Shown: positions 27,121 to 27,330 of the stretch, piece by piece
How the letters are laid out: each line of letters opens with the position of its first letter
Position numbering within the stretch: the stretch's first letter is position 1
NCBI RefSeq assembly: GCF_003334255.1
Contig: NZ_QOWU01000045.1
DNA from: Escherichia coli
GTDB lineage: Bacteria; Pseudomonadota; Gammaproteobacteria; Enterobacterales; Enterobacteriaceae
Strand: one strand, 5' to 3'
Length of the DNA stretch: 44,959 bases
Program-made: the position numbers and the translations under genes
Notes under the pieces: generated by a model
Databases searched by the model: none
Seen by the model: only the letters and a program-made list of their open reading frames with translations
What the model was told of the DNA's origin: nothing

Positions 27121-27240
27121 AAAGGCTCCTGAAATTGAGTTGTCAGAGCAGGATGATTCACAACGCGTTTCATTCAGAGGATTTATGACTGAAACGCCTG
27201 TAACCGGAGCTCATAGGGCAAAAACGTTTCAGTCAGTGTA

Positions 27241-27275
27241 ATAAAAAAAGCCTCGTGGGTGAATCCGCACGAGGC
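27241..27275 (-). terminator. Rho-independent terminator downstream of zwf
   Basis: Stem GCCTCGTG (27250-27257) / CACGAGGC (27268-27275); on the minus strand it is followed by T8 (forward A-run 27242-27249). Confidence 0.6.
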
Positions 27276-27314
27276 CTGAAAGTGTAAAAATTGTTCTACA
27301 ATCTGCGCAAGATC

Positions 27315-27330
27315 ATGTTACCGGTAAAAT
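27315..27330. promoter_or_regulatory. GntR-operator-like palindrome in the zwf-edd intergenic region
   Basis: ATGTTACCGGTAAAAT matches the GntR operator consensus as I remember it (ATGTTACCGGTAACAT) at 15 of 16 positions; edd-eda is GntR-repressed. A weaker related site is at 27197-27214. Confidence 0.4.

Follow-up and report, generated by a model that had tools for sequence, protein, structure and literature searches.

The edd-eda operon is the entry point of gluconate into the Entner–Doudoroff pathway, a pathway that matters for gut colonization by Escherichia coli and often serves as a target in metabolic engineering. Its repression by GntR is stated in PMC13386637 and PMC9648032. The window analysed here, a stretch of 44,959 nucleotides, includes the zwf-edd-eda region, which is identical in sequence to that of E. 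coli K-12, and its strongest GntR-like palindrome lies between the zwf stop codon and the zwf terminator hairpin, raising the question of how a repressor bound there could act on edd. GntR repression of edd-eda was reportedly described by Murray and Conway in 2005. The locus is laid out as follows.

27355–28830, minus strand: zwf (open reading frame and K-12 annotation), with its stop codon at 27355–27357
27121–27354: zwf–edd spacer, running from zwf to edd on the minus strand
25309–27120, minus strand: edd (open reading frame, annotated as edd), with its start codon at 27118–27120
24631–25272, minus strand: eda (K-12 annotation)

As a GntR operator we counted a 16 bp palindrome of the form ATGTTACC(G/C)GTAACAT, and the published GntR consensus is ATGTTACCCGTAACAT (PMC10450161). 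All 44944 window positions were ranked with a weight matrix built from the gntT and gntK sites of E. coli and from the sites upstream of edd in other Enterobacterales families, and the training set held no site from the zwf–edd spacer. For the comparison with relatives, species-representative genomes were scanned with the first 200 residues of Edd, which gave 80 loci. In 45 of them, all from Enterobacteriaceae, edd follows zwf at a distance of about 230 nt; together with the window these made up 46 distinct spacers.

GntR-type palindromes in the zwf 3′ UTR and in edd codons 5–9

Three sites enter the discussion of GntR binding.

27315–27330, minus strand: O_up, a putative GntR operator, ATTTTACCGGTAACAT, in the zwf 3′ UTR, 25 nt past the zwf stop
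27093–27108, palindromic: O_down, a putative GntR operator, the perfect palindrome TTGTTACGCGTAACAA, on edd codons 5–9 (Leu-Leu-Arg-Val-Thr)
27197–27214, minus strand: the weaker site CCTGTAACCGGAGCTCAT of an earlier, sequence-only reading, at about +15 to +32 of the transcript, unsupported as a GntR operator

The sequence-only reading had picked ATGTTACCGGTAAAAT at 27315–27330 as the best GntR-like palindrome of the zwf–edd gap and had located it between the zwf stop codon and the hairpin. Both points held, and all coordinates and sequences quoted there were correct, including those of the hairpin with its T-run (27241–27275) and of CCTGTAACCGGAGCTCAT (27197–27214). The palindrome scored 22.0 bits and ranked first among the 44944 positions of the whole window. 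It differs from ATGTTACCGGTAACAT at one position and is the sole match in 45 kb with three or fewer mismatches, a level reached by at least one match in 13 of 100 shuffled windows. All 46 Enterobacteriaceae loci have O_up in the same position, −200 to −220 from the ATG, and 41 of them share its exact sequence, while its flanks vary and the stretch from the zwf stop to O_up cannot be aligned across the 46 spacers. Judged by its score and this conservation, the strong palindrome after zwf is very probably a real GntR site, and it is deeply conserved.

Two further elements beside O_up were noted. A candidate CRP site adjoining it, CATGA-N6-GCAGA, was rejected because only 5–6 of 10 positions match. 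In each of the 46 Enterobacteriaceae, a Dam site (GATC, 27311–27314, minus strand), part of the invariant block CATGATCT, directly follows O_up; it lies outside the palindrome and has no counterpart at O_down, gntT or gntK.

The second palindrome, O_down, had been missed by the sequence-only reading. It begins 12 nt inside edd, with its centre at about +128.5 from the predicted transcription start, and scored 21.1 bits (rank 2 of 44944), a value reached in one of 100 shuffled windows. These two are the top matrix scores of the window, and the third is 14.1 bits. The third-best 16-mer, GCGTTACCGGTAAAAA at 14159–14174 on the minus strand, lies at the 3′ end of an open reading frame (12733–14178) and may be there by chance. 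O_down has 3–4 mismatches to the GntR consensus in K-12 and a single one in several species; in several genera the site reads ATGTTACGGGTAACAA, one mismatch from the published consensus. Its core TGTTACG[C/G]GTAAC is invariant in all 46 loci, by way of the codons TTA, GTA and ACA.

We then considered whether the coding function could account for this. Among the 587 windows of 14 nt in the first 600 nt of edd, O_down has the lowest entropy, and the third-position entropies of codons 5–9 are 0, 0, 0.89, 0 and 0.26 bits, compared with a gene mean of 1.11. Where the site varies, it shifts toward the GntR consensus, codon 5 being TTG or ATG and the arginine codon CGC or CGG. In Yersiniaceae, Erwiniaceae, Morganellaceae and others, codon choice at the equivalent residues is free. 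By these comparisons, O_down is conserved beyond the coding constraint.

Another conserved block of edd was tried as an operator and rejected. Codons 61–66 (26921–26934, ATGTTGCGTAACAA) scored −2.3 bits; their leucine codon toggles between TTG and CTG and their arginine codon between CGT and CGC, and the rest are common codons. The block shares the 9-mer TTGTTACGC (plus strand) with O_down, its half-sites being spaced 2 bp more closely. In the first 600 nt of edd it is the third-lowest-entropy 14-nt window and has the lowest third-position entropy over five codons. Its conservation probably reflects codon preference.

Between O_up and O_down, none of the 46 species has a GntR-like site above 8.5 bits (median best score, −0.85 bits), and a GntR-like site overlapping the edd promoter described below was found in none of the 46. 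Neither operator sequence is discussed in the searchable full text, a body with the key primary papers and RegulonDB outside its reach, where the only matches were PCR primers; the supplement of a LacI-regulon paper holds no site-level data.

The zwf terminator and the predicted edd promoter

The DNA between the two palindromes carries the following elements.

27241–27275, minus strand: zwf intrinsic terminator, with stem 27268–27275 / 27250–27257, an inner GG/CC pair, the loop ATTCA and a run of seven T (27243–27249)
27258–27263, minus strand: −35 element TTCACC of the predicted edd promoter P1, in the terminator loop and inner stem
27235–27240, minus strand: −10 element TACACT of P1, directly past the T-run
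27227–27229 (about 27228), minus strand: predicted P1 start, placed by the −10 position only; the 5′ UTR would be about 108 nt long
27220–27233, minus strand: Cra (FruR)-type box ACTGAAACGTTTTT, at about −5 to +9 of P1 and abutting the −10 element

A 66-nt window around the hairpin (27225–27290) folds with a minimum free energy of −19.2 kcal/mol, outer helix included (z = −5.0), and none of 200 shuffles folded as stably. Among 35 distinct sequences, 95.7% of the cells are paired, compared with 39–66% in slid controls, and 20 cells show double changes, which fall in four of the six outer pairs. The stem arms thus vary with compensatory changes, and the loop GGATTCACC, the T-run and the subsequent TTACACT are nearly invariant. 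Covariation and folding together argue strongly that the hairpin is the intrinsic terminator of zwf.

The same stretch appears to hold the edd promoter. The −35 element is nearly invariant (41 of 46 loci), and the −10 element is TACACT in 45 loci and TACAAT in one. The 17 bp spacer consists of the 3′ stem arm and the T-run, and this spacing is kept in essentially every species. A simple promoter and terminator scan reported neither element here: the bulge and loop exceed its loop limit, and the P1 hexamers agree with the sigma-70 consensus at 8 of 12 positions, one short of the 9 that it requires. A genomic SELEX study detected in vitro a binding peak of the RNA polymerase sigma-70 holoenzyme in the zwf–edd spacer and listed TTCACC-17-TACACT for edd-eda as the best in silico match under that peak (Shimada et al. 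2014, PMC3946193). Conservation and this match point strongly to a P1 promoter embedded in the zwf terminator. The transcription start supplement of Kim et al. (2012), from cells without gluconate, has no start at the predicted P1 position, as expected of a repressed promoter. That supplement assigns to edd three low-count starts (6, 4 and 3 reads) at about 27471, 27526 and 27715; they lie inside zwf on the minus strand, their transcripts would have to cross the terminator, and they are probably noise or processing sites.

With the −35 element in the loop and the −10 element past the T-run, the predicted edd start lies downstream of the hairpin, so that no read-through would be needed. O_up would thus precede the hairpin only because the promoter incorporates the terminator. 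Its centre lies at about −94.5 relative to the predicted start, which would be too far upstream for direct blocking or occlusion of the polymerase. From the zwf stop to the hairpin, the most variable part of the spacer, neither a −35 nor a −10 element is conserved among the 46 spacers, TTCACC and TACACT being the only conserved sigma-70 elements. A candidate promoter there in E. coli, TTGCGC-18-TACACT (27305–27310 and 27280–27285), was dropped, as its hexamers are unconserved outside Escherichia.

Two Pseudescherichia loci (L018 and L037, positions 2200–2400) bear on the double use of this stretch. By our reading of the alignment, with no folding, they carry an extra terminator-like GC-rich hairpin with a T-run between zwf and O_up. 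In both, the stem embedded in the promoter has decayed, and TTCACC-17-TACACT and a distance of 85 bp from O_up are retained. As far as the alignment goes, these loci are a natural separation of the terminator and promoter functions and serve as a control.

The box ACTGAAACGTTTTT next to the −10 element matches exactly RSTGAAWCSNTHHW, which we take to be the Cra consensus; the window has two such matches compared with 0.29 expected, and the block is conserved. A review describes Cra sites at edd-eda that either overlap the RNA polymerase site or lie past it (PMC4393010). A Cra ChIP-exo paper does not discuss edd. The other exact match, GGTGAATCGTTTCT at 29317–29330, is inside the open reading frame 29168–30037, which in K-12 is yebK, a transcriptional repressor. 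The 5′ UTR also contains an inverted repeat with perfectly matching 10 bp arms, GACTGAAACG ... CGTTTCAGTC (27186–27195 and 27225–27234), and a third copy of TGAAACG at about 27160–27166; the half-site TGAAAC of Cra occurs in all three copies. Many genera keep GCGTTTCAGC, and the inverted repeat shows no compensatory changes. A search for an RNA element in the leader gave no Rfam match, and the fold of the 5′ UTR is not unusual (z = −1.4). The repeats seem more likely to be multiple Cra boxes than an RNA stem.

A pair of remote operators and its alternatives

The positions of the two palindromes relative to each other and to the promoter are restricted. From O_up to the centre of the −10 element the distance is 84–86 bp in all species, though about 35 nt of the intervening sequence diverge. 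O_up and O_down are 222 bp apart in E. coli; the distance is 219–223 bp in 37 loci, 212 bp in 7, 214 bp in one and 232 bp in one. The large changes all fall in the 5′ UTR and amount to about one helical turn. On a neighbour-joining tree, 232 and 214 bp are single events, 212 bp arose in one to three events and 219 bp (−3 bp) in at least three. For the eight distinct distances the Rayleigh R is about 0.6. With few independent events, the distances are modest evidence, suggestive and not decisive, for a helical phase constraint on the spacing. O_up and O_down co-occur in all 46 genomes of a single family, and their co-occurrence is phylogenetically confounded.

We favour, with a probability of about 0.6, a model in which two remote GntR operators flank a promoter lying inside the zwf terminator and cooperate, most likely by looping, with or without a roadblock at O_down. 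P1 itself would carry no GntR operator, O_up in the zwf 3′ UTR and O_down in edd codons 5–9 lying on either side of it. Without gluconate, GntR dimers would act jointly from the two sites, most likely by joining them in a loop of about 222 bp that encloses P1, and GntR on O_down could add a block to elongating polymerase. Gluconate would release GntR and free P1, and edd mRNA would then start at about 27228, past the hairpin, with the Cra box lying over the start site. The most specific form of this proposal, that in Enterobacteriaceae P1 of edd-eda lacks a proximal GntR operator and sits, embedded in the terminator and together with the Cra box, in a gal-like loop of about 222 bp, is tentative and less likely than not to hold. 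GntR (331 aa) aligns over residues 6–317 with residues 4–316 of LacI (360 aa) and has no C-terminal tetramerization helix, so that any bridging would need dimer–dimer contacts of the GalR type.

The most serious alternative dispenses with a stable loop. GntR on O_down would halt the polymerases that leave P1 as well as those that escape the terminator, and O_up would raise the local GntR concentration or have a separate and minor role. In many species the score of O_down equals or exceeds that of O_up, reaching up to 24.3 bits, gntT has its second site about as far from its start, GntR lacks the LacI-type tetramerization helix, and intragenic blocks by LacI-family repressors are established, as with PurR at purB. 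However, a dominant roadblock leaves unexplained the invariance of O_up and its fixed 84–86 bp to the −10 element, as well as the steps of about 10 bp in the large changes of the O_up–O_down distance, and we regard it as unlikely.

Repression by O_up alone, from −94.5, for example through the alpha C-terminal domains of the polymerase or the wrapping of upstream DNA, would accord with its extremely constrained distance to the promoter across 35 variable nucleotides and with a position about 9 helical turns from +1. Codons 5–9 would then be kept for coding or translation initiation, a view that meets several difficulties: O_down ranks second among all GntR matches of the window (a score reached in one of 100 shuffles), its variants approach the GntR consensus (ATG for TTG, CGG for CGC), no other 14-mer in the first 600 nt of edd is as conserved, and its residues are encoded freely in families without O_up at this position. 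This explanation appears quite improbable.

The sequence-only reading had proposed that O_up acts together with a weaker related site at 27197–27214. Cooperation between two operators is what we favour as well, but the partner was the wrong one, since the high score and the conservation belong to 27093–27108. The half-site CCGGTTACAG is indeed present in E. coli, its 117 bp from O_up correspond to about 11 turns, and in a few Citrobacter the score at this position climbs to 8.5 bits, its maximum across species. In most species, however, the score there is negative, and in E. coli the best 16-mer, at −7.35 bits, ranks 1302 of 44944, which is background. Only one half-site is recognizable, and its GTTACA is lost outside Escherichia, so that the site is unconserved and a loop to it is very improbable, with a far better partner at hand in O_down.

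Hardly credible, finally, is the other option of that reading, in which edd-eda is controlled by regulated passage through the hairpin of transcripts that begin near O_up or run on from zwf: the position of O_up upstream of the hairpin and the three low-count starts inside zwf speak for it, but there is neither a conserved −35 nor a conserved −10 element between the zwf stop and the hairpin, the covarying stem and 7-T run are those of a full terminator, conserved sigma-70 elements within and past the hairpin place the predicted start beyond it, and the leader has neither an Rfam family nor an unusual fold.

GntR control of edd-eda is already known, and paired operators of a LacI-family repressor are of a classical kind; the intragenic operator and the loop geometry may be previously undescribed. 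Two features of the locus matter in practice: the predicted promoter overlaps the zwf terminator, and full GntR control probably requires the operator within the first edd codons. ‘P_edd’ reporters and promoter swaps that end at the ATG would then lose one operator, and codon optimization of the edd 5′ end would destroy O_down. The locus would be an example of compact, multi-use DNA, with terminator and promoter in one stretch and codons and operator in another, under a classical type of regulation.

Comparison with other GntR targets and LacI-family repressors

Among the GntR targets of E. coli K-12, gntT is close to edd, with the same repressor, the same type of palindrome and two GntR-like sites, ATGTTACCCGTATCAT and ACGTTACCCATAACAA, 141 bp apart, which is not an integral number of helical turns. 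Its downstream site lies at about +127.5 by the same −10 rule, compared with about +128.5 for O_down of edd. However, the gntT upstream site overlaps the −10 element TATCAT (about −14.5), whereas O_up of edd at about −94.5 leaves the promoter uncovered, and the gntT downstream operator adjoins the start codon, whereas O_down is inside the coding sequence. Peekhaus and Conway (1998) are said to have proposed cooperation or looping between the gntT operators. At gntK, the two GntR-like sites overlap with an offset of 13 bp, and this arrangement is also noted in PMC4052901.

Within the wider repressor family, edd resembles gal in that a LacI/GalR-family dimeric repressor without the LacI-type tetramerization helix has flanking operators, one of them intragenic. 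In the gal repressosome, GalR dimers on OE (−60.5) and OI (+53.5) flank the promoter and leave it uncovered, and OI is located inside the first structural gene. GalR tetramerization has been described (PMC3877293). The gal loop is about 113 bp, compared with about 222 bp for the loop proposed at edd, which would also enclose a terminator and the Cra box. The lac operon likewise has auxiliary operators on both sides, O3 at −82 in the region of the 3′ end of the upstream gene and O2 at +401 in the first structural gene; unlike edd, it has its primary operator O1 on the promoter, and LacI forms a tetramer through the C-terminal helix that is absent from GntR. PurR at purB shows that a LacI-family operator in a coding sequence can block elongation. 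There the intragenic site is single, whereas at edd it is paired with a matching upstream site that keeps a constant distance to the promoter.

The edd genes of other families provide the remaining comparison. In Proteus (L058, L059 and L073), two GntR sites offset by 15 bp (TTGTTACCCGTAACAATGTTACCGGTAACAA) lie 260 nt upstream of edd, at locus L052 TTACC(A/G)GTAACAG-like repeats follow one another, and in Morganellaceae a CRP-like box TCAGATCACAGAT lies upstream of the edd sites; the Edd proteins of Proteus, L052 and Morganellaceae have apparent N-terminal extensions relative to that of E. coli. The edd operators of Morganellaceae, Xenorhabdus and Erwinia follow the same consensus (ATGTTACCGGTAACAT/A). 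The operator there, single or as a tandem pair offset by 15 bp, comes directly after TTGCAA-17-(−10), a putative promoter by eye that is preceded by a CRP-like box, also identified by eye. The coding sequence holds no site. This is the classical occlusion layout. Because these other families show a classical edd operator adjoining the promoter, the remote-pair layout is, in the genomes compared, confined to the one family where edd follows zwf.
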